Source: an uncultured Clostridia bacterium (GTDB taxonomy: Bacteria > Bacillota > Clostridia > Oscillospirales > JAAYOS01). Taken from it: a DNA stretch of 64,000 nt. This document shows, one piece after another, positions 37,523 through 52,513 of this stretch; position 1 is the stretch's first letter, and the number at the start of each line of letters is the position of its first letter. Position numbers and translations under genes: made by a program. The stretch lies in assembly GCA_947630675.1 (NCBI GenBank), contig CANRIN010000004.1:2545-66544 (forward strand). The letters are read 5' to 3'. The notes beneath the pieces are model-generated. The model did not search any database. It was given only the letters and a program-made list of their open reading frames with translations, and was not told the DNA's origin.

Positions 37523-38008
37523 ATGGAATTCATACAGAACTGGATAATAGGAATAAGCGCGGCGTCGATACTCTATGCCGCCGTGTATTCGCTCGCGCCG
37601 GACGGCAGGGCGAAGCGCGCGGTTCGGCTCGCCGGCGGCGCGTGCGTACTGATAGCCGTCTGTGCGCCGATAAGCAGGGTCGACATGAGCAGCCTCGCGC
37701 TCGAAGCAGAGGAGCTCTCGGACGGGTACGCCGCCGAGGCGGAGCGCATGGAGCGCGAGCGCTTCGAGTTCATGCGGTCGGTCATAGAGAAGGAAGCCAA
37801 AGCATATATTTTTGACAAAGCGGACGCGCTTGGGGTGACGTGCGACGTGGACGTGATGTGCTCCGACTCGGAGGGCGTGCCGATACCCGTGTCGCTGCAC
37901 GGAGTCTGGTCGGGAGAGGAGGACGCGCGCGAGCGCCTTGCGGAAGCCGTGGCGCGCGACCTCGGCATACCGCGCGCGTCGCAGAGCTGGGGAGCTGACG
38001 GCGGATGA
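37523..38008 (+). CDS. spoIIIAF: Stage III sporulation protein AF
   Basis: 161 aa with two N-terminal TM helices (IQNWIIGISAASILYAAV...). Position fits SpoIIIAF. Confidence 0.75.
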   Translation: MEFIQNWIIGISAASILYAAVYSLAPDGRAKRAVRLAGGACVLIAVCAPISRVDMSSLALEAEELSDGYAAEAERMERERFEFMRSVIEKEAKAYIFDKADALGVTCDVDVMCSDSEGVPIPVSLHGVWSGEEDARERLAEAVARDLGIPRASQSWGADGG

Positions 38009-38517
38009 AGGCGGAAGTTCTGAAGAAGCTCTCGGAGGCGGTAAAGCGGTACAGGTATATGCTGCTCGTCATTGCGGCGGGACTGCTGCTTCTGCTGCTT
38101 CCTACCGGGAAAAAGACGGAGACCGAGCCCGCCGCCGCGCCGGACTACGAAGCCTTTGAGCTCGCGGAATTCGAGAGTCGGATAGAGAGCGCGCTCGAGA
38201 AGATAGACGGCGTGGGAAAAACGGAGGTGGTTCTGACACTGGGGTCCACAATGGAGACTGTCTACCAGTCCGACCTTACAAGCGACGAGCGGGACGGCTC
38301 CGCGTCCCGCAGGAGCGACACGGTGCTCGAAAACTCCGGCTCCGGCACGCAGTCGGCGGTAGTACGGGAGCGGATATATCCCAAGTTTCGCGGAGCGCTC
38401 GTAGTGTGCGAAGGAGCCTCGAGCGCGAGCGTGCGTCTTGAGGTGACCCGGGCGGTGGAGACGCTTACTGGGCTTTCCGGCGACAGCATCACCGTGCTCA
38501 GGCGCGGAGCAGACTGA
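38005..38517 (+). CDS. spoIIIAG: Stage III sporulation protein AG
   Basis: N-terminal TM. The C-terminal ring-building motif region (LEKIDGVGKTEVVLTL ... YPKFRGALVVCEG) is typical of SpoIIIAG. Confidence 0.8.
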   Translation: MKAEVLKKLSEAVKRYRYMLLVIAAGLLLLLLPTGKKTETEPAAAPDYEAFELAEFESRIESALEKIDGVGKTEVVLTLGSTMETVYQSDLTSDERDGSASRRSDTVLENSGSGTQSAVVRERIYPKFRGALVVCEGASSASVRLEVTRAVETLTGLSGDSITVLRRGAD

Positions 38518-38541
38518 TCTATAAAGAGAGGAGTTCAGACA

Positions 38542-39156
38542 ATGAAGAACGCAAAGATTTGGAAGAAAAACGCGGTGCTTGCCACCGTCATACTGTTCGT
38601 ATGCGTGGCGGTGTACCTCAACTGGTCCTACGGGAGGGACGCCGCGGCCGTGGCGGAGGTCTCGCCATCGCCGTCGGAGGCGTTGGGCACGAAGGTGTCG
38701 GGCGGCGAAGAGGGCGGCTCCGCAGAGCTCTCGGCTGTGGGAGTGAGCACCGAGCCGGCGGCGGCCGACCCGTCGGGGGAGGCGTCCGAAACGGACGCGG
38801 AGGCAAACGAGTACTTTGCCGAAGCGCGCCTCAGCCGCGAGCAGGCACGGGCAAGCTCGATAGCGATACTCCGCGAGTCGGGCGAGACGGAAGCCGCGTC
38901 GCAGGAGGCGCGGGACGAGTCGATAGCGGCGGCAAACCTCATCGCCGCGAACGCTCTCAAGGAGGCGGAGATCGAGGGTCTCGTCATGGCGAAGGGGTTT
39001 GGGGACTGCGTCGCGTACATATCCGACGGCGGGATAGACGTCATCGTCGCCGAGCCGGAGGGAGGGCTTGTCAGCGAGCAGGTCTCGCAGATAAAAGACA
39101 TAGTCCTCAGCAAGACGGACATCCCGATAGAGAACGTGAGGATAGTCGGGGCATAA
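38542..39156 (+). CDS. spoIIIAH: Stage III sporulation protein AH
   Basis: N-terminal TM, acidic linker, and a YscJ/FliF-like C-terminal domain (YFAEARLSREQARA...IEGLVMAKGF). Last gene of the operon. Confidence 0.75.
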   Translation: MKNAKIWKKNAVLATVILFVCVAVYLNWSYGRDAAAVAEVSPSPSEALGTKVSGGEEGGSAELSAVGVSTEPAAADPSGEASETDAEANEYFAEARLSREQARASSIAILRESGETEAASQEARDESIAAANLIAANALKEAEIEGLVMAKGFGDCVAYISDGGIDVIVAEPEGGLVSEQVSQIKDIVLSKTDIPIENVRIVGA

Positions 39157-39163
39157 CAAAACG

Positions 39164-39197
39164 GCGGACGGCTGAATGGACAGACGTCCGCTTTTTT
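39164..39197 (+). terminator. Rho-independent terminator after spoIIIAH
   Basis: GCGGACG (39164-39170) pairs with CGTCCGC (39185-39191), followed by TTTTTT. Confidence 0.7.
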
Positions 39198-39253
39198 GCG
39201 TCCGCACGGCGGGAAACATAGACGGCAAACACCTTGTCTTTTTTTTTAGTCCG

Positions 39254-39310: not shown

Positions 39311-39649
39311 ATGCCCGACAATAAGGAATATATCAGAAGCGAGGACGAATTCGGAAGCATCAGCATATCCGAGGAAGTGATATGCTCCATCGCGTCCGCC
39401 GCCGTGGGCGAAGTGAAGGAATTTACGCTCGCGGGCGGAAGGGGCAGAGCCGTGCGCGTGACGCTCGGAGACGCTTCCGCCTCGGTCGACATAGCGGTAT
39501 CCGTGAAGAGCGGAACTAAGATCCCCGTCGCGGCGGCCGCGCTGCAGAAGTCGGTCGCGCAGGCGCTCGAGGCCATGGCGGGGCTTCCGACGGATGCGGT
39601 AAACATTCACGTCGTAGGGCTTGACCCGGTGGAGGAAAAGAATCGATGA
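39311..39649 (+). CDS. Asp23/Gls24-family alkaline shock protein
   Basis: The start is trimmed to ATG 39311. ISISEEVICSIASAAVGEV is the Asp23 N-terminal signature. This family commonly precedes nusB in Firmicutes. Confidence 0.8.
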   Translation: MPDNKEYIRSEDEFGSISISEEVICSIASAAVGEVKEFTLAGGRGRAVRVTLGDASASVDIAVSVKSGTKIPVAAAALQKSVAQALEAMAGLPTDAVNIHVVGLDPVEEKNR

Positions 39650-40143
39650 CAAGACGTGCCGCGCGCGAGGCAGCGCTGCAGATAGTTTTCGAGATGAGCT
39701 TCAAGCTGCCGTATGAGGCAGCAAACTGGCGCCTCAGTGACGACGGACTGAAGAGCCTCTCCGACCAGACAGAGCTTTTCGGTATGCCGATAGACAGCGA
39801 TTCTCTCGGCTACATAAACGCGGTCGTAAACAACATCGTCGAGCACTACGATGAGATAGACGGATTTATTTCGAAGTATTCCCACGGATGGAAGATCTCG
39901 CGGATAAGCCGGATATGCCTTGCCGTGCTGCGGCTGTGCATCTGCGAGCTCAGATACATGGGCGACACGGTGCCGGCCTCGGTCGCGATAAACGAGGCCA
40001 TACGCATGCTCAAGTGCTACGATGCGGACGACAGCTCCGCCTTTGTAAACGGCATCCTCGGCGCGTACTACCGCGCGGAGCACGGCGGCGATGCGCCGGA
40101 GACTGCGGAGAAAGCGCTTGGGGCGGAGGAAGAGGTAAAGTGA
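39646..40143 (+). CDS. nusB: Transcription antitermination factor NusB
   Basis: RRAAREAALQIVFE...ILRLCICELRY...VAINEAIRMLKCY...FVNGIL are canonical NusB motifs. Confidence 0.9.
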   Translation: MTRRAAREAALQIVFEMSFKLPYEAANWRLSDDGLKSLSDQTELFGMPIDSDSLGYINAVVNNIVEHYDEIDGFISKYSHGWKISRISRICLAVLRLCICELRYMGDTVPASVAINEAIRMLKCYDADDSSAFVNGILGAYYRAEHGGDAPETAEKALGAEEEVK

Positions 40144-41078
40144 GCTTGTTTGTCGGCTTCGACACCTCGAATTACACGACCTCGATAGCTGCCGTAAGCG
40201 GTGGCGAGGTCATCGGAAGGAAACGTCTGCTCGACGTGAAGCCGGGGGAGCTCGGTCTGCGCCAGAGCGACGCGGTGTTCGCTCACACAAAACGCCTCCC
40301 CGAGCTTGCGGAGGCGCTGTTTTCATGCATCAGCGGAGAACTCTCCGCCGTCGCGGCGTCTACGCGTCCGCGCGCCGTCGAGGGTTCATACATGCCCTGC
40401 TTTCTCGTAGGAGAGGGGCAGGGAAGGACGCTTGCGGCGGCTGCGGGCGTTCCGTTCTACGCGGTGTCGCACCAGCAGGGACATATCGCCGCCGCCGCGT
40501 GGTCGGCGGGTAGTTTTGGGCTGCTCGAGCGAGAGTTCCTCGCGTACCACGTCTCGGGCGGCACTACCGAGCTTCTTCACGTCGTGCCGGGGGAGGACGG
40601 GCTTCCGGTCTGCCGCCGCGCCGGCGGGACGGCAGACCTCGCGGCGGGACAGGTGATAGACCGCTGCGGCGTCGCGCTCGGACTCGGGTTCCCGGCGGGG
40701 CCGGAGCTTGAACGCCTTGCCCTGGAAAGCGGACCGGTAAAGCCGTTCCTCCCGAGAGCGTCCGGCGGTGATTTCTCGCTTTCCGGAATAGAAAACAAGT
40801 TCAAAGAGCTGATAGGTACAAAACCGCCGGAGTATATCGCACGGTTTGTGATAGAAAGCGTGTCGGCGGTGCTCGAGCGCGCGGCGGCGCGCGCTCTTGA
40901 GGAGCGTCCCGGTCTTGAGCTTCTCTGTGCGGGCGGCGTAATGTCCAACAGTATAATACGCGCGCGCTTCGAGGAGAGGTTCGGCGCACACTTCGCGGAG
41001 CCGTCCTTTTCAAGCGACAATGCCTGCGGCGTCGCGCTGCTCGCGGAGAGACTGTTCGTAAGGGAGGGGAGAGGATGA
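40140..41078 (+). CDS. Short Kae1/TsaD-family (ASKHA fold, peptidase M22-like) paralogue of unknown function
   Basis: The start is trimmed to GTG 40140, which has a GGAGGA RBS and overlaps the nusB stop. FVGFDTSNYTTS, HQQGH metal-site-like motif, VSGGTTE and AGGVMSN resemble TsaD. The protein is about 312 aa and distinct from the bona fide tsaD at 21239. Confidence 0.7.
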   Translation: MSLFVGFDTSNYTTSIAAVSGGEVIGRKRLLDVKPGELGLRQSDAVFAHTKRLPELAEALFSCISGELSAVAASTRPRAVEGSYMPCFLVGEGQGRTLAAAAGVPFYAVSHQQGHIAAAAWSAGSFGLLEREFLAYHVSGGTTELLHVVPGEDGLPVCRRAGGTADLAAGQVIDRCGVALGLGFPAGPELERLALESGPVKPFLPRASGGDFSLSGIENKFKELIGTKPPEYIARFVIESVSAVLERAAARALEERPGLELLCAGGVMSNSIIRARFEERFGAHFAEPSFSSDNACGVALLAERLFVREGRG

Positions 41079-42334
41079 ACCGCACCGTCTACACCGTCTC
41101 TGAGATAACGTATCACGTCAAAATGCTCGTCGAGAGCGACCGCGCCCTCGCGGACGTCTACGTCTCGGGCGAGCTGTCAAACTACAAGACCTATCCCTCC
41201 GGCCACCACTACTTTACCCTCAAGGACGCGGAGAGCACTCTGAAATGCGTGATGTTCCGCGGAGACGCGTCCAAGCTGCGCTTCAAGCCGGAGAGCGGGA
41301 TGAAGGTCATCATACGCGGCCGCGTCGCTGTCTACCCGCGCGACGGCGCGTATCAGCTCTATGCCTCCGAGATGATCCCGGACGGGTTGGGGGCGCTCTA
41401 CGTCGCCTACGAGCAGCTGAAGCAGAAGCTCGAGAAAAAGGGGTACTTTGACGAGTCGCACAAGAAGCCCATACCGAGGTACCCCGGTAAGATATGCCTT
41501 GTCACCTCGCCCGCCGGCGCGGCGGTGAGGGACATGCTCCGCATCCTCGGCGGACGCTGGCCGGCGGCGGAGGTCGTGATAGTCCCGACGCGCGTCCAGG
41601 GCGAGGAGGCGCCAGCGGAGATAGCGGCCGGCATCGACTATGTAAATAAACACATCACCTGCGACCTTATCATCACGGGACGCGGCGGCGGTTCGATAGA
41701 GGACCTGTGGGCGTTCAACGACGAGCGTGTGGCGGACGCCATCTTCCGCTCGCAGATACCGGTGATAAGCGCCGTCGGGCACGAGCCGGACTTCACTATA
41801 TCCGACTCTGTGGCGGACCTCCGCGCGGCGACGCCGTCGAACGCGGCGGAGCTCGCCGTCCCGGATGCGGACGAGGTAAGGATACAGCTTGACGGCATAG
41901 GCGCGCGGCTCCGCGCGCTCGCCGACCGGCACATACGGCTTGCGCGGATACGTCTCGATGCGCTCGCTAAAAAGCCGGTATTCTCCGGCCCGGAGGGGAC
42001 GCTCCGCGAGAGGCGGCACCGCCTCGAGCTCGCGGAAAATGCCTTTTTCGTCGCGGCGGAGAAGAGAGTGGAACGGGAAAGAGCGAGACTTTCGAGGATA
42101 GCGGCGTCGCTCGACGCGCTAAGTCCGCTCGCGGTTCTTGCGCGCGGATACGCCATCGCAAGCCTTCCGGACGGAACGGCGGTCCGCAGCGTAAAGACGC
42201 TGAAGCCGGGAATGACGCTCCGGCTGAGATTTTCGGACGGAACGGCGGAGGCGGCGGTTCTTGGCGGCGCGCCGAAGCGGCGCGCGAGAGCCGCCGACCC
42301 GGGCGAAACGCCCGAACAGCTTGAGATAGGTTGA
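41075..42334 (+). CDS. xseA: Exodeoxyribonuclease VII large subunit
   Basis: OB-fold N-terminus (VYVSGELSNYKTYPSGHHYFTLKD) and catalytic core (ITGRGGGSIEDLWAFNDE, SAVGHEPD). Confidence 0.9.
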   Translation: MNRTVYTVSEITYHVKMLVESDRALADVYVSGELSNYKTYPSGHHYFTLKDAESTLKCVMFRGDASKLRFKPESGMKVIIRGRVAVYPRDGAYQLYASEMIPDGLGALYVAYEQLKQKLEKKGYFDESHKKPIPRYPGKICLVTSPAGAAVRDMLRILGGRWPAAEVVIVPTRVQGEEAPAEIAAGIDYVNKHITCDLIITGRGGGSIEDLWAFNDERVADAIFRSQIPVISAVGHEPDFTISDSVADLRAATPSNAAELAVPDADEVRIQLDGIGARLRALADRHIRLARIRLDALAKKPVFSGPEGTLRERRHRLELAENAFFVAAEKRVERERARLSRIAASLDALSPLAVLARGYAIASLPDGTAVRSVKTLKPGMTLRLRFSDGTAEAAVLGGAPKRRARAADPGETPEQLEIG

Positions 42335-42354
42335 TAAACTTCCGAGGTGATAAT

Positions 42355-42597
42355 ATGGCGGAAAAGAAGAAACTGAGCTTTGAACAGTCGTTAAAGAGGC
42401 TTGAGGAGATAGCTGCGCTGCTCGAAAACGGTGAGACGCCGATAGAGGAGTCGCTGAAGCTGTTTGAAGAGGGCGCGGCGCTTCTGGCGGACTGCAGCAA
42501 GGTCCTCGAGGAGGCGGAGAAAAAGGTAAGTATCCTCGTCGGTACGTCCGACGGAGGCGAGCCGGTCACGGAGCCGTTCGGGGGAGCGGAAGAATGA
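42355..42597 (+). CDS. xseB: Exodeoxyribonuclease VII small subunit
   Basis: The start is trimmed to ATG 42355, which has a GAGGTG RBS. LSFEQSLKRLEEIAALLENGE..LEESLKLFEEG is typical of XseB. Confidence 0.85.
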   Translation: MAEKKKLSFEQSLKRLEEIAALLENGETPIEESLKLFEEGAALLADCSKVLEEAEKKVSILVGTSDGGEPVTEPFGGAEE

Positions 42598-43463
42598 GCG
42601 CGCACCGGGACGCGCTTGCGCGGGAAGTAAATACCGCGCTTGACTCGCTTCTGCCGGAGGGCGGCGAGACGTCGCGCCTGTACGAGGCGATGCGTTACAG
42701 CCTCACTGGCGGCGGAAAGCGCCTCCGTGCGTTGATGCTCCTCGAGTTCTGCGAGCTTTTCGGAGGCGACAGGGAGCTTGCGATGAAGTTCGCATGCGCT
42801 ATAGAGTGCATCCACGCCTACTCGCTCATCCACGACGACCTGCCCTGCATGGACGACGACGATATGCGGCGCGGAAAGCCGTCCTGTCATATAGCCTTCG
42901 GGGAGAACGTTGCCGTGCTTGCCGGCGACGCGCTCCAGACCTTTGCCTTCGAGCAGATGGCGCTCGCGGCGGCGGAGCATCCGGCGGAGGGACTCGAGGC
43001 GCTGCGCGTCGCGGCATGCGCTGCCGGTCCCGCGGGAATGTGCGGCGGACAGCTCCTCGACCTTGAGAACGAGACGCGGCGCGCCTCCCGCGCGCGGCTT
43101 GAGACGACCTGCGCGCTCAAGACCGGCGCGCTCATCTCCGCCGCCTGCGAGATAGGCGCGATACTCGGCGGAGCGGACAGTGATGGCCGCAAGGCAGCGT
43201 GTCGGTACGCGGAGGGCGTCGGCCTCGCGTTTCAGGTGATGGACGACCTGCTCGACGTAGTCGGCAGCGCCGAGAGCTTCGGCAAGGCTACCGGCGCGGA
43301 CGAACGGCGCGGAAAGAGCACGTTTGCCTCCGAGCTCGGCACGGAGGAGTGCGAAAGGCTCATCCGCTCCCTCACGGACGGAGCGGTTGCGGCGATAAAG
43401 GACATACCCGGCTCGGAAGAACTCGTGGCGCTTGCCGAAGAGCTCGCCCGGCGCAGCTTCTAG
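42594..43463 (+). CDS. ispA: Farnesyl diphosphate synthase (geranyltranstransferase)
   Basis: First and second Asp-rich motifs: LIHDDLPCMDDDDMRRG and FQVMDDLLD. Confidence 0.9.
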   Translation: MSAHRDALAREVNTALDSLLPEGGETSRLYEAMRYSLTGGGKRLRALMLLEFCELFGGDRELAMKFACAIECIHAYSLIHDDLPCMDDDDMRRGKPSCHIAFGENVAVLAGDALQTFAFEQMALAAAEHPAEGLEALRVAACAAGPAGMCGGQLLDLENETRRASRARLETTCALKTGALISAACEIGAILGGADSDGRKAACRYAEGVGLAFQVMDDLLDVVGSAESFGKATGADERRGKSTFASELGTEECERLIRSLTDGAVAAIKDIPGSEELVALAEELARRSF

Positions 43464-43479
43464 GCGGAAAGGGGACAAG

Positions 43480-43950
43480 ATGTTTACTCCGTATCTGCTT
43501 ATATCCACGGCGGTGAGCTTTCTCACCGGCAACCGGATAGTAAACGCCGCCGTCGTCGCATGGCTCATAGCCCAGGTGACGAAGGTGGCCATAGAGTCGC
43601 TTCGCCTGAAGAAATTCGTGTGGCGGCGGTTCTTTGTCGGCTCGGGCGGGATGCCCAGCTCGCACTCGGCCTGCGTCTGCGCGGCGACAGTCGCCGTCGC
43701 GCGAGTGGCGGGGATACAGAGCGTTGAGTTCGGGATATCCGCGATATTTGCGTTTATAGTCATCTTTGACGCGGTGAACGTACGCCGGGCGGCAGGCGAG
43801 CACTCCCACGTTCTGAACGTCATGATACAGAGCGCGGACAAGCAGTCCCCGGAGCTGTTCGGCAGACAGATGAAGGAGCTGCTTGGGCACACGCCGCTTC
43901 AGGTATTCGTGGGGATACTGCTCGGCGCCGCCGTAGGTTTCTTCATGTGA
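43480..43950 (+). CDS. Divergent PAP2 / DUF212 (YuiD-like) membrane protein
   Basis: The start is trimmed to ATG 43480. NAAVVAWLIAQ..K......GGMPSSHSA...FDAVNVRR..GEH is the DUF212 (acid phosphatase/vanadium haloperoxidase-related) signature. Confidence 0.8.
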   Translation: MFTPYLLISTAVSFLTGNRIVNAAVVAWLIAQVTKVAIESLRLKKFVWRRFFVGSGGMPSSHSACVCAATVAVARVAGIQSVEFGISAIFAFIVIFDAVNVRRAAGEHSHVLNVMIQSADKQSPELFGRQMKELLGHTPLQVFVGILLGAAVGFFM

Positions 43951-43984
43951 CCGCGGCTGTCTAATTAGTTAAACAGATTTTATT

Positions 43985-44015
43985 CCTCCCCTTGAATAAA
44001 GGGGAGGTTTGTGTT
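43985..44015 (+). terminator. Rho-independent terminator ending the nusB-ispA-yuiD-like operon
   Basis: CCTCCCC (43985-43991) pairs with GGGGAGG (44001-44007), followed by TTTGTGTT. Confidence 0.7.
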
Positions 44016-44020
44016 ATAAT
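44012..44020 (+). promoter_or_regulatory. Extended -10 promoter (TGTTATAAT) in front of the large ncRNA
   Basis: TGnTATAAT at 44012-44020, overlapping the terminator tail. The predicted transcription start is around 44027. Confidence 0.45.
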
Positions 44021-44027
44021 AAGAAAC

Positions 44028-44665
44028 TGCATAATGGTGGCGCAGTATCCTAGTCAGAGCATCCGGCTCCTAGGACGGGCCTAAAAATCCGTTGAAGGGC
44101 ACATCGATGAAGTCCCTGGTGTTTGCTTCTTTCGCCCAGACTGGGGTGGATGCTGGGGGTTAAGGTTTCAGGGCGGCTTGCAACGGCATGCATCCCCCGA
44201 CCCTGTTTCCGTGGAGACCCGTTATTGTGCCGTACTCCCATCGGACGCGCGAAAGTGCCCCGGGGTAATCGGGTACGAGACGGGGTGAAACCTGTATTGC
44301 GGTGCGAAAGGTCGCTTGCGACCCGTGTAGCGCTGTGTGCAGCGTAGCCTGCCTTGAGTGGGCATGGCGGATCCGGGATCAGACTCGTCTGCCGCCGGCC
44401 GCGGCGGACGAGTTATCGCTCGAAGAAATCATGCCTGCAAAAGAGGCTAAGAGTCGGTTTGCCTGCAGTGGAAAACACCTAGGCTGTCCGCGGCGAAAGT
44501 CGGGGGCGGCGAGAGGATTGCAGTACGGACTAAGTGGTAATCCGGTACCCATTTTGGGCGAGGGCTTCAAAGGGAAACCGCCCTCTGCGGCGACGCGGGG
44601 CAGCCCTCCGTGGAAATCAGACCGGACCTAAGCCGTAAGATTTACTTTCGCTGCCGCCACTTTAT
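44028..44665 (+). ncRNA. ole: Large structured non-coding RNA; best interpretation is OLE (ornate, large, extremophilic) RNA
   Basis: About 800 bp without a credible ORF or RBS inside a compact operon. A terminal helix (44037-44045 with 44651-44660) encloses ~620 nt dense in hairpins, including GAAA and CTTG tetraloops and a 13-bp stem at 44383-44413. The flanking order ispA...[RNA]-[4-TM protein]-dxs-tlyA-nadK-argR-recN equals the published OLE/oapA context. Ends are approximate (+/-30 nt). No covariance-model search was run. Confidence 0.7.
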
Positions 44666-44757
44666 TATGCTCCCGTGCGGACGTTGTCCGCGCGCCGCCG
44701 TCTATGCGGCGGAAGCTTTATTTCATACAACTTTTTGTTTCAAGGAGCGATATCGAT

Positions 44758-45390
44758 ATGGAAGGCGACCGAAGTAGCACCGAACCGAAACGAAGCGACG
44801 CGCGGCTTACCGACAAGAAAAAGAAGCCGCCGTCATCAAAGAAAAACTTCAACCCGCGCTGGATAATAACCCTGTTCTTTATGACGATGGCTATATCCAT
44901 GACGATGTCGTTTATCTCAAGCGAAGCGCTGCGCGGTGTTGGGGACATAGTCGCGTTCTGTGTGCTCGGTTTTTTCATACTGCTCGGTATAGTTTTTGAC
45001 GTTATAGGCGTGGCGGTGACTGCGGCGGACGAAAAGCCGCTCAATTCGATGGCCGCCCGCAAGGTGAACGGCGCGCGCGAAGCGCTCGCGCTCGTGCGGT
45101 CGGCGGACAAGGTGTCCTCCTTCTGCAACGACGTCGTGGGGGACATATCCGGCATCATCTCCGGCGCCACCGGAGCCATAATCGCCACGCGCCTTGTCGC
45201 GAGCTTCGACCTGCCGAACGTCGTAGTGAGCCTCCTGATGAGCGGAATGATCTCCGCTCTCACTGTCGGAGGCAAGGCGGTGGGCAAGAGCCTCGCGATA
45301 AATTACAGCACCGTCATAGTCCACTATGCCGGACGCGTGGTGTATTTTGTAAAGCGTCCCTTCACCTTCAGAAAACACAAACACAAATAA
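44758..45390 (+). CDS. oapA: Four-TM membrane protein immediately downstream of the ncRNA; candidate OLE-associated protein A
   Basis: The start is trimmed to ATG 44758, which has an AAGGAG RBS. 210 aa (about 22 kDa) with four hydrophobic helices and Lys/Arg-rich N- and C-termini. Size, topology and position match the description of OapA. The sequence family was not verified by search. Confidence 0.65.
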   Translation: MEGDRSSTEPKRSDARLTDKKKKPPSSKKNFNPRWIITLFFMTMAISMTMSFISSEALRGVGDIVAFCVLGFFILLGIVFDVIGVAVTAADEKPLNSMAARKVNGAREALALVRSADKVSSFCNDVVGDISGIISGATGAIIATRLVASFDLPNVVVSLLMSGMISALTVGGKAVGKSLAINYSTVIVHYAGRVVYFVKRPFTFRKHKHK

Positions 45391-45419
45391 GTCGGACACA
45401 GAGGGACGGGGGTGTTTCG

Positions 45420-47240
45420 GTGTCCATCCTCGATGGGATACATTCCCCCGAAGACGTAAAAAAGCTGGATATGGCGCAGCTCGACGAACTTTGTGCCGAG
45501 CTGCGCCGCGAAATAACGGACAGCGTGCTCCGCACCGGCGGGCACCTGGCCTCAAGTCTCGGCGCGGTGGAGATCATTGTTGCTCTTCATCGTGTTTTTT
45601 CGACCCCTAAGGATAAAATCATCTTCGATGTCGGCCATCAGTCCTACGCTCATAAGCTCCTCACCGGACGCCGGGACACGTTTGACACACTGCGCCGGTT
45701 CGGCGGGCTCTCCGGCTTTCCCGACCCCGCCGAGAGCGAGCACGACGCGTTCCGCGTCGGCCACGCATCCACATCGGTGTCCGCCGCGCTCGGCATGGCT
45801 CGGGCAAGGACGCTGAAGGGAGAGGACCGCAACATCGTCGCTCTGCTTGGCGACGGGGCGCTTACCGGCGGGCTCGCATATGAGGCGCTTACCGACGCGG
45901 GTCAGTCCCGCGAGCGCCTTATAGTAATACTCAACGACAACGAGATGTCGATAGCGCACAACGTCGGCGGTGTGGAGCAGATGCTCGGAAGGCTGCGCCT
46001 GCGCCCGGGATACATGCGCGCAAAGGACAAATTCCGCGCCGCCACCAGCAGGGGCCGCATAGGCCACGCCGTGTACCGCGTCGTACACGGCTCGAAGCAG
46101 TTTCTCAAGAGCCTTCTCATACGCTCAAACATATTCGAGGACATGGGCTTTACCTACCTCGGACCGGTGGACGGGCATGACGTGAAAAATCTCTGCCGGC
46201 TGCTCGAGCTCTCGAAGAGCTACAACGGACCGGTGCTGATACACGCGGTCACCGTCAAGGGCAGGGGATACGGCCCTGCGGAAAACGACCCGGAGAAGTA
46301 CCACAGCGTCTCGCCGGCGGGCAGCGCAAAGCCCGGGATGAGTTATTCACGCGCGTTCGGGGACGCGCTCGTCGAGCTTGCGCGCGAGGACAGCCGGATA
46401 TGCGCCATCACGGCGGCCATGGAGAGCGGAACAGGTCTTGAGAAGTTCGCGCGTGAATTCCCCGAGCGCTTTTTTGACGTGGGCATAGCGGAGGAGCACG
46501 CCATGACGATGGCGGCAGGGCTCTCGGCGGCGGGGATGAAGCCGGTGTTTGCCGTCTACTCCACCTTCGCGCAGAGAAGCTATGACGAGCTGCTGCACGA
46601 CGTCGCGCTTCAAAAGCTGCCGGTCGTCATAGCCGTCGACCGCGCGGGCCTCGTCGGAGAGGACGGCGCTACGCACCACGGAGTTTTTGACCCGGGCTTT
46701 CTTGCACAGGCTCCGGGGATAAGAGTATACTGCCCGGCAAACGCGGCGGAGACGCGGGAGTATCTGCGCCTCGCGTTCGACTGCGGTGCCCCCTGCGCGA
46801 TACGCTATCCGCGCGGAGGCGAGGGCAGGTTCACAGGGATCTCCCACGGCGGGGCGGAGGTCGTGAGACGCGGTTCGGACGTGACGGTGGCCGCTTACGG
46901 GCACATGCTCTCAAACGCGCTTGACGCCGCCGACATCCTCGAAAAGCGCGGTGTTTCTGCCGAAATAGTGAAGATAAATACGCTCGTGCCGCTCGACACC
47001 GAAACCGTGTTTGCGTCCGCCGGGCGGACGGGGTGCCTCGTCGTGGCGGAGGACTGCTGCGCCGAGGGCTCTGCGGGGCAGCGGCTGGCCGCGAAGGCGG
47101 CATGCGCCGGAGAGAGATTCGAAATAAAGCTTCTGAACCTCGGGAACCGCTTCTGTGAGCACGGTCCCGTGTCGGAGCTCGAGAGATATTACGGCATTGA
47201 CGGCGAAGGTATCGCGGAGGTGGCGCTGTGGCAAAAATGA
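45420..47240 (+). CDS. dxs: 1-deoxy-D-xylulose-5-phosphate synthase
   Basis: GTG start. GGHLASSLGAVEI, DVGHQSYAHKLLTGR, thiamine-PP motif GDGALTGGLAYEALTDAG, and a transketolase-like C-terminus. Confidence 0.95.
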   Translation: MSILDGIHSPEDVKKLDMAQLDELCAELRREITDSVLRTGGHLASSLGAVEIIVALHRVFSTPKDKIIFDVGHQSYAHKLLTGRRDTFDTLRRFGGLSGFPDPAESEHDAFRVGHASTSVSAALGMARARTLKGEDRNIVALLGDGALTGGLAYEALTDAGQSRERLIVILNDNEMSIAHNVGGVEQMLGRLRLRPGYMRAKDKFRAATSRGRIGHAVYRVVHGSKQFLKSLLIRSNIFEDMGFTYLGPVDGHDVKNLCRLLELSKSYNGPVLIHAVTVKGRGYGPAENDPEKYHSVSPAGSAKPGMSYSRAFGDALVELAREDSRICAITAAMESGTGLEKFAREFPERFFDVGIAEEHAMTMAAGLSAAGMKPVFAVYSTFAQRSYDELLHDVALQKLPVVIAVDRAGLVGEDGATHHGVFDPGFLAQAPGIRVYCPANAAETREYLRLAFDCGAPCAIRYPRGGEGRFTGISHGGAEVVRRGSDVTVAAYGHMLSNALDAADILEKRGVSAEIVKINTLVPLDTETVFASAGRTGCLVVAEDCCAEGSAGQRLAAKAACAGERFEIKLLNLGNRFCEHGPVSELERYYGIDGEGIAEVALWQK

Positions 47241-48037
47241 GACTTGACGTGCTGCTCGTAGAGCGCGGGATATTCCAGAGCCGCGAGCGCGCCCGTGCAG
47301 CGATAATGAGCGGCGAGGTGTTCGTGGCGGGCGTACGCGTGGACAAGGCCGGAGCGTCGGTGCCGGAGGACGCGGAGGTGGAGTTCCGCGGCCGCGCGAT
47401 ACCGTATGTGAGCCGGGGAGGACTGAAGCTTGAAAAGGCGCTCTCTGTCTTTCCGGTGGATCTCGAGGGCGTCCGCGCGGCGGATGTCGGCGCTTCCACC
47501 GGCGGCTTTACCGACTGTATGCTCCGAAACGGCGCGGCGAAGGTCTACGCGATAGACGTGGGCTACGGGCAGCTCGCGTGGTCGCTCCGCACGGACGAGC
47601 GCGTCGTCGTCATGGAGCGGACGAATATCCGCAGCGTCACACCGGATATGATAGGCGAACCGCTCGACTTCGCGTCGATAGACGTGAGCTTCATTTCGCT
47701 TCGGATAGTTCTTCCGTGCGTGAAGCCCCTGCTCCGCGCCGGAGGGGAGGTCGTTGCGCTGGTGAAGCCTCAGTTTGAGGCGGGGCGCGAAAAGGTGGGA
47801 AAGAAGGGCGTCGTCCGCGATCCGGCAACGCACCTCGAGGTTTTGGAAGCGTTCCTCACCCACGCGCATGACGCCGGATTTGCCGTGAAAGGGCTGGACT
47901 TCTCTCCCGTCAGAGGACCGGAGGGCAACATAGAGTATCTTGCGCACCTCTCAAGCGAGGGCGAGAGCGGAGACTTCGACCTGGAGAAGCTGGTGGAGAG
48001 CTCACACTCCGCGCTCGACGGAAAGGAGAGCGTGTGA
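47228..48037 (+). CDS. tlyA: TlyA-family 16S/23S rRNA (cytidine-2'-O)-methyltransferase
   Basis: S4 domain (RLDVLLVERG...SRERA) plus FtsJ-like methyltransferase (DVGASTGGFTDCML, ALVKPQFEAGRE). Confidence 0.9.
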   Translation: MAKMRLDVLLVERGIFQSRERARAAIMSGEVFVAGVRVDKAGASVPEDAEVEFRGRAIPYVSRGGLKLEKALSVFPVDLEGVRAADVGASTGGFTDCMLRNGAAKVYAIDVGYGQLAWSLRTDERVVVMERTNIRSVTPDMIGEPLDFASIDVSFISLRIVLPCVKPLLRAGGEVVALVKPQFEAGREKVGKKGVVRDPATHLEVLEAFLTHAHDAGFAVKGLDFSPVRGPEGNIEYLAHLSSEGESGDFDLEKLVESSHSALDGKESV

Positions 48038-48888
48038 TGACGCGAATCAATACTCTGCTGATATATTCAAATCCCGACCGCGACCCCAGCCTGGTGTACG
48101 CGGCGAAGATGGAAGAGACCGCACGCCGCCTCGGCGCCTCCGTCACTCTCTGTGACTCACACTGCGGGCGGGACGAGCTTCTCTCCCTGCTTGCCGGGCG
48201 GGATATGGCGGCGGTGCTCGGCGGGGACGGAACGATACTTTCCGCCGCCGTTCCGGCTGCGGAGGCGGGCGTTCCGATACTCGGGATAAACCTTGGAAAT
48301 ATAGGCTTCATGAGCGCGTTCGACGCCTCCGACGGAGACTCGCTCGAAACGGTGCTCAAGGGCAGTTACGTCACGGACGAACGCGCGCTCCTATCGGTAC
48401 GCGCGGAGCGGGACGGCAGAGAGTTCTTCCACGCTGCGGCGCTCAACGACGCGGTCATCTCCGCGGGAGAGCTCGGAAGGATGGTGCGCGTCGAGATATC
48501 CTGCGGCGGGAGCCGAGTAGCAGTTCTGCGCGGCGACGGCGTCATCGCCGCGACGCCTACCGGCTCGACGGCGTACTCGCTTTCGGCGGGAGGCCCGATA
48601 ATCGACCCGCGCTCCGACTGCATGGTTTTGACGCCGGTCTGTGCGCACACACCGTACGCACGTCCTATCGTGCTGCCGCTCTGCTCCGAAGTGCGGCTCA
48701 GAGCGCCCGAGAGCGCCGTCCTGACGGTGGACGGTCGGCAGGGAACGCGGCTTGAACCGGGAGACAGTGTGCTCATCGGCAAATACGCCAAAAAAACTAC
48801 ATTGATACGCTTGCAAAATTATGACTTTTATGGTATCATTGGTACAAAACTTTGGCAGACACAAATATCGGAGGTGGGCAATCTGTGA
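48034..48888 (+). CDS. nadK: NAD kinase
   Basis: GGDGT motif (VLGGDGTILSAA), INLGNIGFM, and ATPTGSTAYSLSAGGPI. Confidence 0.9.
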   Translation: MMTRINTLLIYSNPDRDPSLVYAAKMEETARRLGASVTLCDSHCGRDELLSLLAGRDMAAVLGGDGTILSAAVPAAEAGVPILGINLGNIGFMSAFDASDGDSLETVLKGSYVTDERALLSVRAERDGREFFHAAALNDAVISAGELGRMVRVEISCGGSRVAVLRGDGVIAATPTGSTAYSLSAGGPIIDPRSDCMVLTPVCAHTPYARPIVLPLCSEVRLRAPESAVLTVDGRQGTRLEPGDSVLIGKYAKKTTLIRLQNYDFYGIIGTKLWQTQISEVGNL

Positions 48889-49340
48889 AAAAGGAGCGTC
48901 ACGAGAAAATAATCGAGCTTGTGAGGACAAGCAAGGTCGGTACACAGGATGAGCTCGTCGATATGCTGCGCGAAGCGGGCTACGACGTGTCTCAGGCCAC
49001 TATTTCCCGGGACATCAAGGAGCTGCGGCTGCAAAAGGCGGCCGCCCCTTCTTTCGGATACAGGTACGTTCTTCCGGACGAGCGGCCGGACAGCACAGGC
49101 GACGAGCGCCTTCAGGACATATTCCGCAAGAGCGTTTCCAATGTGGACTATGCGGCAAACATTATCGTCATAAAGACCATGGCCGCCCTTGGCAGCGCGG
49201 CGTGCGCCGCAGTCGACGGGATGAAGTACGACGGCATAGTCGGCACCCTCGCGGGTGACGATACGGGGCTTATCATAGTGCGCAGCGAAGAACAGGCGCG
49301 CAGGCTCTGCGAACATCTGCGCGAGCTTATTGAGGGCTGA
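48885..49340 (+). CDS. argR: Arginine repressor
   Basis: The start is trimmed to GTG 48885, with GGAGGTG 8 nt upstream; it overlaps the nadK stop. RHEKIIELV....TQDELVDMLREAGYDVSQATISRDIKEL, and GTLAGDDT in the C-terminal domain. Confidence 0.9.
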   Translation: MKKERHEKIIELVRTSKVGTQDELVDMLREAGYDVSQATISRDIKELRLQKAAAPSFGYRYVLPDERPDSTGDERLQDIFRKSVSNVDYAANIIVIKTMAALGSAACAAVDGMKYDGIVGTLAGDDTGLIIVRSEEQARRLCEHLRELIEG

Positions 49341-49342: not shown

Positions 49343-51028
49343 ATGCTTCTCTTTCTGCAAATCGAGAATATAGCCGTAGTGGAACGCGCGGAGGTCGAGC
49401 CGGGCGAGCGACTGAGCGTCCTCACCGGTGAGACCGGCGCGGGCAAGAGCATCGTCATAGATGCGATAAACGCCGTCCTCGGCGAGAGAATGCCGCGCGA
49501 CCTGATACGCTCCGGCGAGAAGAGCGCCACCGTGAGCGCGTGTTTTTCGCCGCTCGCTCCCAGCGTGCTTGAATGGCTTGATGAAAACGGCTACGAACCG
49601 GACGAGGACGGCTCGCTCATTATACGCAGGAGCCTTTCGGCGGACAGTCGGAACCTCTGCCGTATAGGCGACCGGCCGGTGAGCGTGTCCGCGCTGAAAA
49701 AGCTAGGAGCGCTTCTTGTCAACATACACGGTCAGCACGACAGCGGACGTCTGCTCGACGAGCACGCGCACCTCGGCTATCTTGACGGATTTGCGGGAGA
49801 CGGCGAGCTTCTAGGAAGCTATCACGCTGTCTGGGGCGAGCTGCGGGAGATACGCGGGGAGATAGAAAGGCACACCCTCGGCGAGGAGGAAAAGGCGTTC
49901 CGCGCAGACTTCCTGCGGCGGCGGATAGAGGATGTCGAGGGAGCAGAGCTTGAAGCGGGCGAGGAGGAGGAGCTTACCGCGCGGAGGAAAATACTCCAAA
50001 GCGCACAGAAGCTCTCCGATGCCGTGGACGACAGCATTTCCGAGCTCTACGGAGGCGAGGACTACTCCGGCGCGCTCGCGCTTATCGAGAGTGCAGCCGG
50101 GCGCATTGATGAGGCCGCGCAGACCGATGCAAGCCTTTCTGAGCTTGCGTCAAAGCTCCGCGACCTTCGGTTTGCCGCGGAGGATGCGGCGGACGACCTG
50201 AGAAGGCTCCGCGGCGAGTACGACTTCTCGCCTGAAGAAATAGACGAGGTGGAAAGCCGCCTCGACGTCATAAATACTCTCGAGCACCGCTACGGCGGCA
50301 CGGTCGAGACGCTGCTCAGCGACCTCGACAAGTGGCGCGCGGAGCTTTCGGACATAGAGTTTTCGGAGGAAGCGCTCGAGAGGCTCCGCCGGCGCGAGGC
50401 GGATACGCTGAAGCGCGCGGAGAAGCTTGCGGATGAGCTCGGCGCTGTACGCCGCGAGGCGGGCGTCCGGCTCGCCGAAGCGATAGAACGCGAGCTCCGC
50501 GAGCTCGATATGCCGGGCGTACGGTTTGTCACCGAAGTCGAAAAGAGCGCCCTCGGCGCGGACGGCGGAGACGGCGTCCGCTTCCTTATCTCCGCGAACG
50601 CGGGCGAGGAGCTGAAGCCACTCAGCAGGATAGCGTCCGGCGGCGAGCTGTCGAGGATAATGCTTGCGATGAAGTCGGTGCTGACATCCGGCGACGAAGT
50701 GGCCACGCTCATATTCGACGAGGTGGACTCCGGCGTGAGCGGACGTGCTGCGCAGCGCGTAGCGGAAAAGCTTGCCAAGATCGGGCGCTCGAGACAGGTG
50801 CTCTGCGTGTCGCACCTGCCGCAGCTTGCGGCCATGGCGGACTGCCAGCTCCTTGTCGAGAAGCGCGAGCGGAACGGGCGCACCTTCACGTCGGTGATAA
50901 ATCTCGACGGCGAGGCGCGCGAGCACGAGCTTGCGCGTATAATCGGAGGCGAAGAGGTGACCGACACCATCCTCCGAAGCGCGCGCGAGCTCATCGACGC
51001 GGCGGACCGCTACAAACAAAACTTGTAA
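49343..51028 (+). CDS. recN: DNA repair protein RecN
   Basis: Walker A LTGETGAGKS, long coiled coil, SMC signature SGGELSRIMLA, and Walker B LIFDEVDSG. Confidence 0.95.
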   Translation: MLLFLQIENIAVVERAEVEPGERLSVLTGETGAGKSIVIDAINAVLGERMPRDLIRSGEKSATVSACFSPLAPSVLEWLDENGYEPDEDGSLIIRRSLSADSRNLCRIGDRPVSVSALKKLGALLVNIHGQHDSGRLLDEHAHLGYLDGFAGDGELLGSYHAVWGELREIRGEIERHTLGEEEKAFRADFLRRRIEDVEGAELEAGEEEELTARRKILQSAQKLSDAVDDSISELYGGEDYSGALALIESAAGRIDEAAQTDASLSELASKLRDLRFAAEDAADDLRRLRGEYDFSPEEIDEVESRLDVINTLEHRYGGTVETLLSDLDKWRAELSDIEFSEEALERLRRREADTLKRAEKLADELGAVRREAGVRLAEAIERELRELDMPGVRFVTEVEKSALGADGGDGVRFLISANAGEELKPLSRIASGGELSRIMLAMKSVLTSGDEVATLIFDEVDSGVSGRAAQRVAEKLAKIGRSRQVLCVSHLPQLAAMADCQLLVEKRERNGRTFTSVINLDGEAREHELARIIGGEEVTDTILRSARELIDAADRYKQNL

Positions 51029-51054: not shown

Positions 51055-51088
51055 GACAGGAGCGGGCTTTGCCCGCTCCTGTCTTTTA
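51055..51088 (+). terminator. Rho-independent terminator after recN
   Basis: GACAGGAGCGGGC (51055-51067) pairs with GCCCGCTCCTGTC (51071-51083), followed by TTTT. Confidence 0.8.
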
Positions 51089-51090
51089 CT

Positions 51091-51657
51091 GCTTCGCACG
51101 CTGCGAACAGCGAAAGCGCGAACCAATTTCTCATCCGACACTCTACTGCTTTCGCCTGCAATATTCACTTCGCGAATATTGCCCGACCTTGAGCACGTTA
51201 CTGGCGGAGCGGCTTCGCCGCGTCCGCCTCGCAGAGAATGCGCCCCTCAACTTGTTACGCACCGTAATTTTCTACCGGGCGCATCAGACCTCGGCGCTTC
51301 GCGCCGACGTCCCGACTTTCTGCTAATTGAAGAAAAAAACTCATCTCGCGGAGCGCGTTTCAAGCGGCGAAGCCGCTTCCGCGCCGGTTCGCGCGGTTGA
51401 AGTTGGCGGCTGCGTCGCCAACTTCGCGCAGGGGCAATTCACTTGCCCCGAGCATTTCAATCGGAAGGGCTCCCACGCGGTCGCGACCGCGTGGGAATTG
51501 CGTAGCGGAGCGTTTGGCACCGGCAGAGCTACGCTCTGTCCGGTACCCTCGGCACGAAAGGGTGCGCAGCGAAGCGAGCACATTTCGTGCCGAGCAATCT
51601 CGCGGCAAATTGGTAAGGGCGCGGATTTCATCCGCGCCCGCGATTTGCCGCGATAAG
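51091..51657 (+). repeat. Hairpin-rich non-coding modular repeat, copy A (inverted relative to copy B at 59754-60350)
   Basis: About 570 bp without a credible ORF, made of consecutive short GC hairpins. The core 51364-51503 aligns to the reverse complement of 59927-60071, including a 37-nt identical run (51446-51482 = rc of 59949-59985). Further colinear blocks are 51222-51322 with 60085-60275, and 51548-51594 with 59754-59810. Confidence 0.75.
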
Positions 51658-52416: not shown

Positions 52417-52513
52417 TCCTGTCACCTCTGTCCCGCAGCCGCGCGACGGCGGCGGAACATCCCTTTCTTTAGAATTCAGGGGGCGAACGCTCGCCCCCAA
52501 GATAGTTAGAATG

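Follow-up and report, generated by a model that had tools for sequence, protein, structure and literature searches.

A probable OLE RNA and OapA locus with a truncated P13 helix in an uncultured Clostridia bacterium

A stretch of 64,000 nucleotides from an uncultured Clostridia bacterium, referred to here as the window, very probably carries a full-length OLE RNA at 44021-44676 and, as the next gene, OapA at 44758-45390. The Rfam OLE model RF01071 matched the window at 44021-44676 on the plus strand with 440.4 bits (E 5e-126; gathering threshold, 50 bits), and the match extends without truncation over model positions 1-616 of 616, with the structured core occupying 44037-44660 from P1 to P1. 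The original prediction of an OLE RNA at this place, made by eye from the letters, was upheld by this covariance-model search, in which RF01071 was the only Rfam family matched in the 64-kb window. The ornate large RNA of this locus, which we take to be OLE (ornate, large, extremophilic) RNA of family RF01071, ranks, to our knowledge, among the bacterial non-coding RNAs of greatest size and conservation that have no assigned biochemical function. Its hallmarks are a stable transcript of about 600 nt, localization to the membrane through OapA and the formation of a homodimer, and in recent work the RNA has reportedly been proposed to span the membrane. The locus is a further member of a known, Rfam-detectable RNA family, and its identification is routine; another OLE copy adds little alone, because Rfam detects the OLE RNA of the window at once.

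The family structure was projected on a comparison set of 99 independently fetched OLE RNAs, in which 85.7% of the cells were paired versus 40-48% in slid controls, and compensatory changes on both sides were counted at 127 of the 153 family pairs in a MAFFT alignment, which is unreliable in variable stems. The observed pairing and covariation values were reached by none of 500 shuffles, and helices 10-14 of the projected structure, which are variable stems in the MAFFT alignment, were only 35-62% paired. In the window sequence itself, 139 of the 153 family base pairs are canonical, and 186 of the 192 near-invariant positions (columns with a conservation of 95% or more among the 98 other OLE RNAs) are kept, four of the six misses being the deleted tip of P13; the conserved OLE core, whose absence would speak against the call, is thus present. 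OLE is also the best-conserved segment of the locus against the closest relatives, with 95.5% identity to the relative L120, where the neighbouring genes show 87-92%, and 82.5% identity to L122, where they show 71-76%.

The ends of the RNA are joined by P1, in which GUGGC (44037-44041) pairs with GCCAC (44656-44660). Each of its five pairs is 95-100% paired and has changed on both sides, with compensatory changes from GC to AU in 15, from UA to CG in 13 and from CG to UA in 30 sequences. P1 is absent from the structure annotated by Rfam. The terminal helix of the original prediction contained these five outer base pairs, which covary and were retained, together with four inner base pairs, which were rejected because they conflict with a covarying long-range helix (helix 17; 44505-44515 with 44645-44655) that closes the 3' domain, is 96.2% paired and shows both-side changes at 11 of 11 pairs. 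Every complementary string picked out by eye does lie where it had been placed, but about half of the helices drawn from them were wrong pairings. GGCATG/CATGCC and the 13-bp hairpin that it encloses are identical to helices of Rfam. The pairing GGTCG/CGACC is supported as a clade-specific apical hairpin, GGUCG-CUUG-CGACC (44310-44323), which is formed by an insertion at 44306-44329 that lies at the tip of helix 44292-44305/44330-44342 and goes 22 nt beyond the loop of the model (44307-44328); of 40 relatives with an insertion at this site, 36 have a hairpin of 4 bp or more, built from differing sequences, with a mean dG of -7.9 versus -4.0 after shuffling. Another insertion relative to the RF01071 model, 36 nt long and variable, extends the apex of a conserved stem at 44234-44269, and the proposed hairpin GCGC-GAAA-GUGC (44247-44258) is weakly supported as real by its occurrence in the MFE structure and by an analogous hairpin of different sequence in L122. 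As for the pairings that were not kept, two positions of TCCTAG/CTAGGA are unpaired in 84-86 of the 99 sequences; CGCTG/CAGCG shows no covariation and clashes with helix 44292-44305/44330-44342; GGATT/AATCC is near-invariant with no both-side change, and its 3' columns covary with other partners; and GAGGGC/GCCCTC at 44560-44585 is 47% paired, the true partner of GAGGGC being a second GCCCTC at 44602-44610. The consensus sequences of J4a/5 and J5/6 (CAUCGAUGAAG ... UUAAGG), which may form the k-turn near P5 to which OapC binds, are present in the window at the level of sequence.

The RNA departs from the family at P13 (44547-44558, ACCCAUUUUGGG), where 10 positions of the RF01071 model are deleted and a 12-nt stub of about 4 bp is left without the GNRA tetraloop and without the bulged nucleotide. 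P13 is 20-24 nt long with a central GNRA in 94 of the 99 OLE RNAs, and the stub is common to the window and its relatives L120, L121 and L122. The GNRA tetraloop and single-nucleotide bulge of P13 constitute the primary OapB-binding site, and the loop of P14.1 is a weak secondary site in H. halodurans (PMC7936274); the GCGA tetraloop closing P14.1 is retained in the window at 44590-44593 in the RF01071 alignment. On the basis of the P13 stub, the particle is predicted to work without OapB bound at P13; OapB would either be missing altogether or be bound solely at the GCGA loop of P14.1, which is kept. The P13 site is not universal in the family, in which functional-looking OLE variants without it have been described, and a comparable loss was described in the reduced TANB77 and RF39 symbionts (PMC11332333). 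A tentative proposal, which we hold to be possible and somewhat less probable than its negation, is that the window, the rabbit-gut metagenome-assembled genomes L120 (CANQDU01) and L121 (CANRJS01), and L122 (CAMNWZ01) have an otherwise full-length OLE ribonucleoprotein without OapB docking at P13, and have it in a spore-forming, high-G+C, apparently unreduced genome; the window contains sporulation genes at a G+C content of 61%, and the surrounding genome gives no sign of reduction in these respects. If the proposal is true, OapB would not belong to the core of the OLE particle but be an accessory to it, and the clade would amount to a natural experiment on the contribution of P13 and OapB. 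No KOW- or L7Ae-type protein was found in a Pfam scan of ten window ORFs (seven of them small, 85-165 aa), and no CNNM-CBS transporter in a scan of ten large window ORFs, results that say little because genes for such accessory proteins normally lie elsewhere in the genome.

The deletion in P13 could mean reduced function, and at its extreme the OLE gene would be a decaying relic, in which the missing tip marks the loss of function and oapA persists for another role. Four near-invariant nucleotides are indeed missing at the tip, and in some related lineages oapA is present without OLE beside it (loci L148, L164, L171, L195 and L198), which shows that OLE loss does occur in the group; according to a published statement, oapA is confined to organisms that contain ole. 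A relic is nevertheless very improbable, because outside the P13 tip only two conserved positions deviate, the 139 canonical family pairs persist, OLE exceeds every other segment of the locus in conservation in two relatives of unequal distance, the stub itself is conserved as a small hairpin with compensating sequence differences in L120, L121 and L122, and functional-looking variants without the OapB site have been published (PMC11332333); a pseudogene reading was accordingly rejected on conservation. OLE RNAs with a deleted OapB site and lineages with oapA only are natural variants for questions about which parts are essential.

The OLE RNA lies in a gap of 807 nt between the stop codon of the DUF212 (yuiD-like) gene at 43950 and the ATG at 44758, in agreement with the gap of about 800 bp without a credible gene that had been described there, the ORFs within it not being conserved. 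The gap contains a terminator-like hairpin at 43985-44007 on the plus strand, with a 9-bp stem, six G-C pairs and the tail TTTGTGTTAT, which would close the upstream ispA-DUF212 unit (RNAfold, -17.7 kcal/mol); the hairpin is conserved in L120, and an analogous hairpin is found in L122. Its T-rich tail extends into the -10 box of a candidate sigma-70-type promoter at 43992-44020 on the plus strand (TTGAAT-17-TATAAT with an upstream TG, 10/12 matches), in which the -35 element TTGAAT (43992-43997) falls within the loop and stem of the terminator and the extended -10, TGTTATAAT, spans 44012-44020 with the -10 box at 44015-44020. The terminator/promoter module is 96% identical to that of L120 and is present in L120 and L122, and analogous -35/-10 elements are found in L124 and L131. 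The earlier suggestion of a terminator that overlaps an extended -10 was therefore confirmed to the extent that the hairpin, the T-rich tail and the promoter-like site were all found and are conserved in relatives. From the position of these elements, OLE transcription would start near 44027. The locus documents a self-contained candidate promoter/terminator arrangement for ole that is kept in relatives.

Between OLE and oapA, two G+C-rich hairpins followed by AAGCUUUAUUU occupy 44675-44722 on the plus strand (hairpins at 44675-44693 and 44695-44712, the latter terminator-like; U-rich tail within 44695-44722; spacer MFE, -36.1 kcal/mol) and may act as a 3'-end element or a partial terminator. 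The L120 spacer is different, that of L122 is without a hairpin, and the spacer of the window gave no match among relatives in the identity comparison; the hairpins were rejected as a conserved terminator, since they vary even among close relatives. It has very little probability that the structured region is mainly a cis-acting leader or attenuator for oapA-dxs instead of a stand-alone RNA. It does lie on the same strand as oapA-dxs, and the terminator-like hairpins and U-rich tail (44695-44722) before oapA could modulate read-through, but neither the spacer nor the hairpins are conserved even in the closest relatives, whereas the conserved part is the 620-nt RNA, which in the studied species is a stable trans-acting component of a ribonucleoprotein (PMC12265935, PMC9723947), and no riboswitch or leader family was matched by Rfam in the 64-kb window.

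Practically negligible, and rejected as no ORF is conserved, is the reading that the gap codes for one or more small proteins, such as a 109-aa ORF (44302-44631) or a 74-aa ORF (44123-44347), for although ORFs of 63-109 aa occur on both strands, long spurious ORFs are common in DNA of 61% G+C, no RBS is present, the substitutions fall in the pattern of a paired RNA, and the ORFs are broken in relatives by stop codons and by indels of lengths not divisible by three, the 74-aa ORF already in the closest relative at 97% identity and the 109-aa ORF through stops and frameshifts in L122, L124 and L131. An annotation based on ORFs only would leave 800 nt blank here, possibly with spurious ORFs called inside.

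The gene that follows the OLE RNA, oapA (44758-45390, plus strand), encodes a CNNM-like protein of 210 aa with four predicted transmembrane helices (residues 33-60, 63-89, 116-149 and 154-206) and with hydrophobic peaks. A hallmark of OapA is cooperative binding of OLE RNA near P2 and P4a. An AAGGAG ribosome-binding site (44742-44747, plus strand), also present in L120, stands 10 nt before the ATG at 44758, and this start is favoured over the in-frame ATG at 44704 on account of the lengths of the homologues, which are 188-212 aa; one of them has 210 aa and is 95% identical with 100% coverage. The OapA assignment proposed earlier is supported by the four predicted helices, by homology to OLE-adjacent proteins and by the DxxxD motif. 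A homologue of the protein lies directly after OLE in 100 of the 105 testable loci (OLE loci with a downstream ORF) across diverse Bacillota, with E values of about 1e-30 to 1e-50 against these OLE-adjacent proteins, for example 4.5e-42 in Lederbergia lenta, 3.8e-43 in Caldalkalibacillus and 3.9e-51 in Caloramator. The DxxxD motif (D125-V-V-G-D129; codons 45130-45144, plus strand) has both aspartates invariant in 40 homologues, and it is a signature of OapA that CNNM domains lack, while these have a conserved proline that OapA lacks (PMC11332333). No domain was found in the protein by Pfam/NCBIfam at default thresholds (Pfam, 1e-3), in which there is no curated OapA model, and only at a relaxed threshold did PF01595 (CNNM) match residues 72-199, with E 0.004 and 17.3 bits, below the cut-off of 28.4; against CNNM, P0009 and P0015, which are relatives, reach 34.4 and 26.0 bits. 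An AlphaFold model of moderate confidence (mean pLDDT 68, pTM 0.57) gave MtCorB (7M1T/7M1U) as the top three Foldseek matches with a probability of 1.00 each, weak E-values of 0.014-0.14 and TM-scores of 0.39-0.52 on the query, and a CorB-like (CNNM-like) fold is therefore predicted from this model.

The surrounding genes, all on the plus strand, are nusB (39646-40143), xseA (41075-42334), xseB (42331-42597), ispA/FPP synthase (42594-43463) and the divergent PAP2 gene DUF212 (43432-43950) by Pfam/NCBIfam upstream, and dxs (45420-47240), the gene for a tlyA/FtsJ-like methyltransferase (47228-48037), nadK (48034-48888), argR (48852-49340) and recN (49343-51028) by Pfam downstream. The same gene order was found in related OLE loci, and among 118 independent OLE loci, ispA lies upstream in 98 and oapA downstream in 104, so the operon context invoked in the original prediction is canonical both by Pfam in the window and by measurement in related loci. 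No published list of ole neighbours was met in the indexed literature. The position of DUF212 between ispA and ole was considered as an oddity and rejected, since in 26 fetched loci across Clostridia DUF212 is the immediate upstream neighbour of OLE. The relatives are Clostridia or Oscillospiraceae by name; of the earlier placement of OLE in anaerobic or extremophilic Firmicutes, the anaerobic half agrees with this host and the extremophilic half does not, the source being a gut-type Clostridia lineage.

A mode of action is proposed for this organism, with the promoter and the transcript ends projected from its sequence and the functional steps from homology to the OLE systems of H. halodurans and C. 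botulinum (PMC12265935, PMC9723947, PMC7936274, PMC11332333). A sigma-70-type promoter of its own, lying within the terminator of the ispA-DUF212 unit, would drive transcription of the OLE RNA, and the 5-bp P1 helix would join the 5' and 3' ends of the RNA. The variable 3' hairpins may define the 3' end of the RNA and let some transcription reach oapA-dxs. OapA, presumed from its homologues to be a dimeric, CNNM-like membrane protein and putative divalent-metal transporter, would then bind the OLE RNA and hold it at the membrane or possibly across it. The ribonucleoprotein so formed may help the cell to cope with short-chain alcohols, cold, excess Mg2+ and poor carbon sources. No evidence contradicting the identification of OLE and OapA was encountered.

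Among known systems, GOLLD and ROOL are also large structured non-coding RNAs and form homo-oligomers in cryo-EM (PMC12286853); they are like OLE in size and structured character but bear no relation to it in sequence or structure and lack a membrane protein as dedicated partner, and neither was detected in the window by the Rfam scan. The "variant 1" OLE RNAs, which come mostly from the TANB77 clade, have shortened P7-P9 and score 310-390 bits with the authors' model, and those clades are largely without OapB and OapC (Fernando and Breaker 2024, PMC11332333). The RNA of the window scores 440.4 bits with a different model, so that the two scales are not strictly comparable, and its deletion relative to the Rfam model is confined to the P13 tip, besides two stem-tip insertions, with helices taken from the Rfam model and not from the P7-P9 numbering; the TANB77 symbionts have reduced genomes, and the genome around the window shows no sign of reduction. 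The full-length OLE RNAs of Halalkalibacterium (Bacillus) halodurans and Clostridium botulinum share with the window the same helices, its 186 of 192 near-invariant nucleotides, the J4a/5 and J5/6 sequences of the putative k-turn (retained at sequence level), and the same slot between ispA and oapA-dxs in a spore-former of the Bacillota. The window differs from them by the 12-nt P13 stub without GNRA loop or bulge, by the apical insertions of 36 nt (44234-44269) and 22 nt (44307-44328), by a putative promoter of the RNA's own nested in the upstream terminator, and by its host, a gut-type uncultured Clostridia bacterium of 61% G+C, whereas H. halodurans is an alkaliphile.

Like the OapA proteins of H. 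halodurans (BH2780 / WP_010898928.1) and C. botulinum (CLB_RS09010), the window protein is encoded directly downstream of ole, has a mass of about 21-23 kDa, four predicted transmembrane helices, DxxxD, weak CNNM similarity and a predicted CorB-like fold, and is basic in the N-terminal tail, the cytoplasmic loop and the C-terminus. It is moderately identical to OapA of Bacillaceae, with phmmer E values of about 1e-41 to 1e-45, the link to H. halodurans OapA running through OLE-adjacent proteins of other Bacillaceae. With the CNNM Mg2+ transporters MpfA, CorB and CorC it would share the transmembrane fold, as suggested by the top three Foldseek matches and the sub-threshold PF01595 match, but it ends at residue 210 without a CBS pair and without CorC/HlyC, has four predicted transmembrane helices where those proteins have three, and possesses an RNA partner and the DxxxD motif, which is absent from CNNM (PMC11332333). 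OapA thus resembles the CNNM transporter family and is not a member of it.

The gap downstream of the DUF212 (yuiD-like) gene holds an OLE RNA that belongs to its family in sequence and structure, is under selective constraint and is linked to the gene for its membrane-protein partner OapA. A Rfam 15 scan of the whole window gave a single match above the gathering threshold, RF01071 (OLE), at 44021-44676 of the forward strand (440.4 bits against a threshold of 50, E 5e-126, model positions 1-616 of 616, untruncated). This was the check proposed with the original prediction of an OLE RNA, and it supports that interpretation; the RNA adds one more member to a well-known family and is picked up at once by a routine Rfam scan. 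An independent set was collected from GTDB species genomes, comprising 119 loci retrieved with a core OLE motif of 17 nt and a further 80 retrieved with the downstream protein; OLE was located in the fetched loci by nhmmer, and 98 non-redundant full-length copies plus the window form alignment A1, onto which the Rfam structure was projected from the Rfam-model alignment of the window. In A1, standard pairs make up 85.7% of 14,645 cells, a share that falls to 40-48% once the 3' partners are shifted by 1-3 columns; changes on both sides occur in 127 of 153 pairs, and the observed values were reached by 0 of 500 column shuffles. The window itself forms 139 of the 153 pairs canonically; of the 192 columns with at least 95% conservation among the other 98 RNAs, it has the consensus base in 186. 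Because its RNA is 95.5% identical to that of the closest relative, L120 (surrounding genes 87-92%), and 82.5% identical to that of the more distant L122 (surrounding genes 71-76%), the OLE RNA is more constrained than its protein-coding neighbours, which opposes its reading as a decaying relic. OLE was also seen on contigs binned to non-Bacillota MAGs, L023 (labelled Fibrobacter sp.) and L029 (labelled Deltaproteobacteria, with a normal oapA downstream), probably through mis-binning or rare transfer; 24 OLE matches outside Bacillota are given in the literature.

The individual helices originally drawn fared unevenly in the alignment. GGCATG/CATGCC with its enclosed 13-bp hairpin coincides with Rfam helices, and GGTCG-CTTG-CGACC (44310-23) is a clade-specific apical hairpin, in that 36 of 40 relatives with the insertion form a hairpin of differing sequence. 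In the terminal helix, the outer five pairs (44037-41/44656-60) stand, being 95-100% paired with GC>AU in 15, UA>CG in 13 and CG>UA in 30 sequences; the inner four pairs do not, as they are 25-44% unpaired, show zero double changes and compete with a helix at 44505-15/44645-55 that is 96% paired and covaries at 11 of 11 pairs. The outer five pairs lie outside Rfam's annotated structure; in published models a P1 belongs to "domain 2" (PMC12265935), and this supported helix may be that P1. GCGC-GAAA-GTGC (44247-58) is a weakly supported hairpin within a variable insertion. TCCTAG/CTAGGA is lineage-specific at best, with two positions unpaired in 84-86 of 99 sequences; CGCTG/CAGCG lacks covariation and clashes with a supported helix (44292-305/44330-42); GGATT/AATCC is near-invariant with zero changes on both sides, and the columns of its 3' side covary with other partners; and GAGGGC/GCCCTC (44560-85) is 47% paired, the true partner of GAGGGC being a second GCCCTC at 44602-10. 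About 17 Oscillospiraceae OLE RNAs have an altered J4a/5, in which CAUAGCUGUGAAAC replaces CACAUCGAUGAAGU (A1 columns 60-100 and 146-178; for example L123:5166-5829, L136:3517-4174 and L165:5079-5731), and a G+C-rich hairpin inserted at the usual place of UUAAGG (J5/6). The window is outside this subgroup; J4a/5 and J5/6 constitute the region forming the OapC-bound k-turn.

In the sequence of 43800-45500, 807 nt separate the DUF212 stop (43950) from the next credible start, ATG 44758, which is preceded by the RBS AAGGAG (44742-44747, forward strand). Sequence and consensus scan agree with the gap, terminator and promoter first described there, all on the forward strand: a terminator-like hairpin at 43985-44007, with 9 bp (6 of them G-C) and a T-rich tail, and, overlapping it, a promoter-like site at 43992-44020 (TTGAAT-17 nt-TATAAT with TG upstream, 10 of 12 matches), a kind of site found twice in the region against 0.8 +/- 0.9 in shuffles. 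The loop and 3' stem of the upstream terminator hairpin contain the -35 box TTGAAT, and the T-tail of that hairpin enters the extended -10 (43985-44020); L120 and L122 keep this compact overlap, and analogues occur in the related loci L124 and L131. The OLE RNA would have its own promoter, with transcription starting near 44027, a 3' end predicted within 44660-44720 and possibly some read-through into oapA. Hairpins between OLE and oapA (44675-44712, forward strand; spacer MFE -36 kcal/mol) are not conserved and differ even in close relatives. The ORFs of the gap (63-109 aa) include none that is conserved in the relatives compared: the 74-aa ORF does not survive intact even in the closest relative, and stops and frame-breaking indels build up in the 109-aa ORF in L122, L124 and L131.

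The gene order of the original prediction was verified by Pfam and NCBIfam as nusB (39646-40143), xseA, xseB, ispA, DUF212, ole-oapA, dxs, a tlyA/FtsJ-type methyltransferase gene, nadK, argR and recN. Among 118 fetched OLE loci, 98 have ispA upstream, and downstream 104 have oapA and 80 have dxs; the DUF212 gene directly precedes OLE in 26 loci and is therefore no oddity but a variant that recurs. The rest of the window (recA, cysS, ligA, spoIIIAE/AG, SpoIID; G+C ~61%) is ordinary spore-former chromosome. Uncultured Clostridia MAGs labelled "Lapin", taken to mean rabbit gut, are closest to the window (95% identity in OapA, ~90% in DNA); Oscillospiraceae and Butyricicoccus come next. Long antisense ORFs of 280-641 aa (37573-39228, 41177-42019 and 41967-43892, all reverse strand), opposite spoIIIA/nusB/xseA/ispA, arise as artefacts of the high G+C content (61-63%), and naive longest-ORF gene calling takes them instead of the real genes. 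Between nusB and xseA, ORF 39888-41078 (forward) overlaps nusB as listed, its true start probably being further downstream, and shows sub-threshold TsaD/Kae1-like NCBIfam matches (103.6 bits against a cut-off of 296); Pfam at 1e-3 matches none of the four forward ORFs after recN (51069-53497; 85, 292, 301 and 90 aa).

The 210-aa product of the gene that begins at ATG 44758 has no family in Pfam or NCBIfam at default thresholds; its homologues number in the thousands, most of them unnamed "hypothetical proteins" from Oscillospiraceae and other Clostridia. Its assignment to OapA was settled by linkage: 105 of the loci found by the OLE DNA motif alone carry, no more than 600 nt downstream of OLE, an ORF of 100 aa or longer, and 100 of these ORFs are homologous to it (E 1e-30 to 1e-50), including those of the Bacillaceae Lederbergia, Alkalihalobacillus and Caldalkalibacillus. 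ATG 44758 is favoured over the in-frame ATG 44704 because the homologues are 188-212 aa long; one of 210 aa aligns over its full length with 95% identity. Published OapA features are a DxxxD motif, four helices, basic tails and loop, and CNNM similarity (PMC11332333, PMC12265935). The motif is D125-V-V-G-D129, both aspartates being invariant in 40 homologues, and the expected four hydrophobic helices and Lys/Arg-rich termini are matched by four long predicted helices (33-60, 63-89, 116-149 and 154-206; AlphaFold2, mean pLDDT 68) and by 11 K/R in residues 1-34 and 7 in 181-210, with 6 more in the loop (91-118). The CNNM match is sub-threshold (E 0.004, 17.3 bits against a cut-off of 28.4), and the best three PDB matches of the predicted fold are the archaeal CNNM protein MtCorB (7M1T and 7M1U), likewise the published fold match of H. 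halodurans OapA. Unlike CNNM transporters, the protein lacks CBS and CorC domains, and is therefore not a strict CNNM transporter. By homology to characterized particles, OapA dimers would bind a dimerizing OLE RNA near P2 and P4a and keep it at, or possibly across, the membrane, and the particle could help the cell withstand alcohols, cold, Mg2+ and poor carbon sources, perhaps with OapA serving to transport divalent metals (PMC12265935, PMC11332333, PMC9723947).

The only leads past the routine are related loci that keep oapA without adjacent ole, and a truncated P13. Five Oscillospirales-type loci (L148:5500-6600, L164:2000-2850, L171:5600-6600, L195:5500-6520 and L198:5800-6520) have an oapA that encodes the DVVGD motif, with dxs-tlyA-nadK-argR-recN after it; xseA, xseB and ispA are absent upstream, and OLE was found neither at the Rfam gathering threshold nor by nhmmer at E<=10. 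In the three where it is clear (L164, L171 and L198), oapA lies about 100-300 nt from the previous ORF. Published work confines oapA to organisms that have ole (PMC9723947); in these five cases OLE may be located at another place in the genome or have been lost. The accessory protein OapB binds OLE RNA primarily at the P13 hairpin, which bears a GNRA tetraloop and one bulged nucleotide (PMC7936274). Of the 99 aligned RNAs, 94 have a P13 of 20-24 nt, in every case with a central GNRA; in the window it is reduced to ACCCAUUUUGGG (44547-44558, forward strand). The close relatives L120 and L121 have CCCGUUUUGGG there, and L122 has CUCCUCGGAG. Of the six positions at which the window departs from the conserved core, four belong to this deletion. 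The GCGA loop of P14.1 (44590-93), a weak secondary OapB site, is retained. Other P13 variants are a 66-nt expansion in L038:3083-3735 (same contig as L124), a 41-nt version keeping GCAA in L163:5273-5892 and a 16-nt hairpin with a UCUG loop in L190:5321-5948, and P13 seems evolutionarily labile in gut Clostridia. We predict that OapB does not dock at P13 in the window's lineage. Loss of the P13 tip has been reported in "variant 1" OLE RNAs from gut clades with reduced genomes, in which OapB is largely absent too (PMC11332333); the tip is likewise gone from the window RNA, but this RNA is otherwise full-length.
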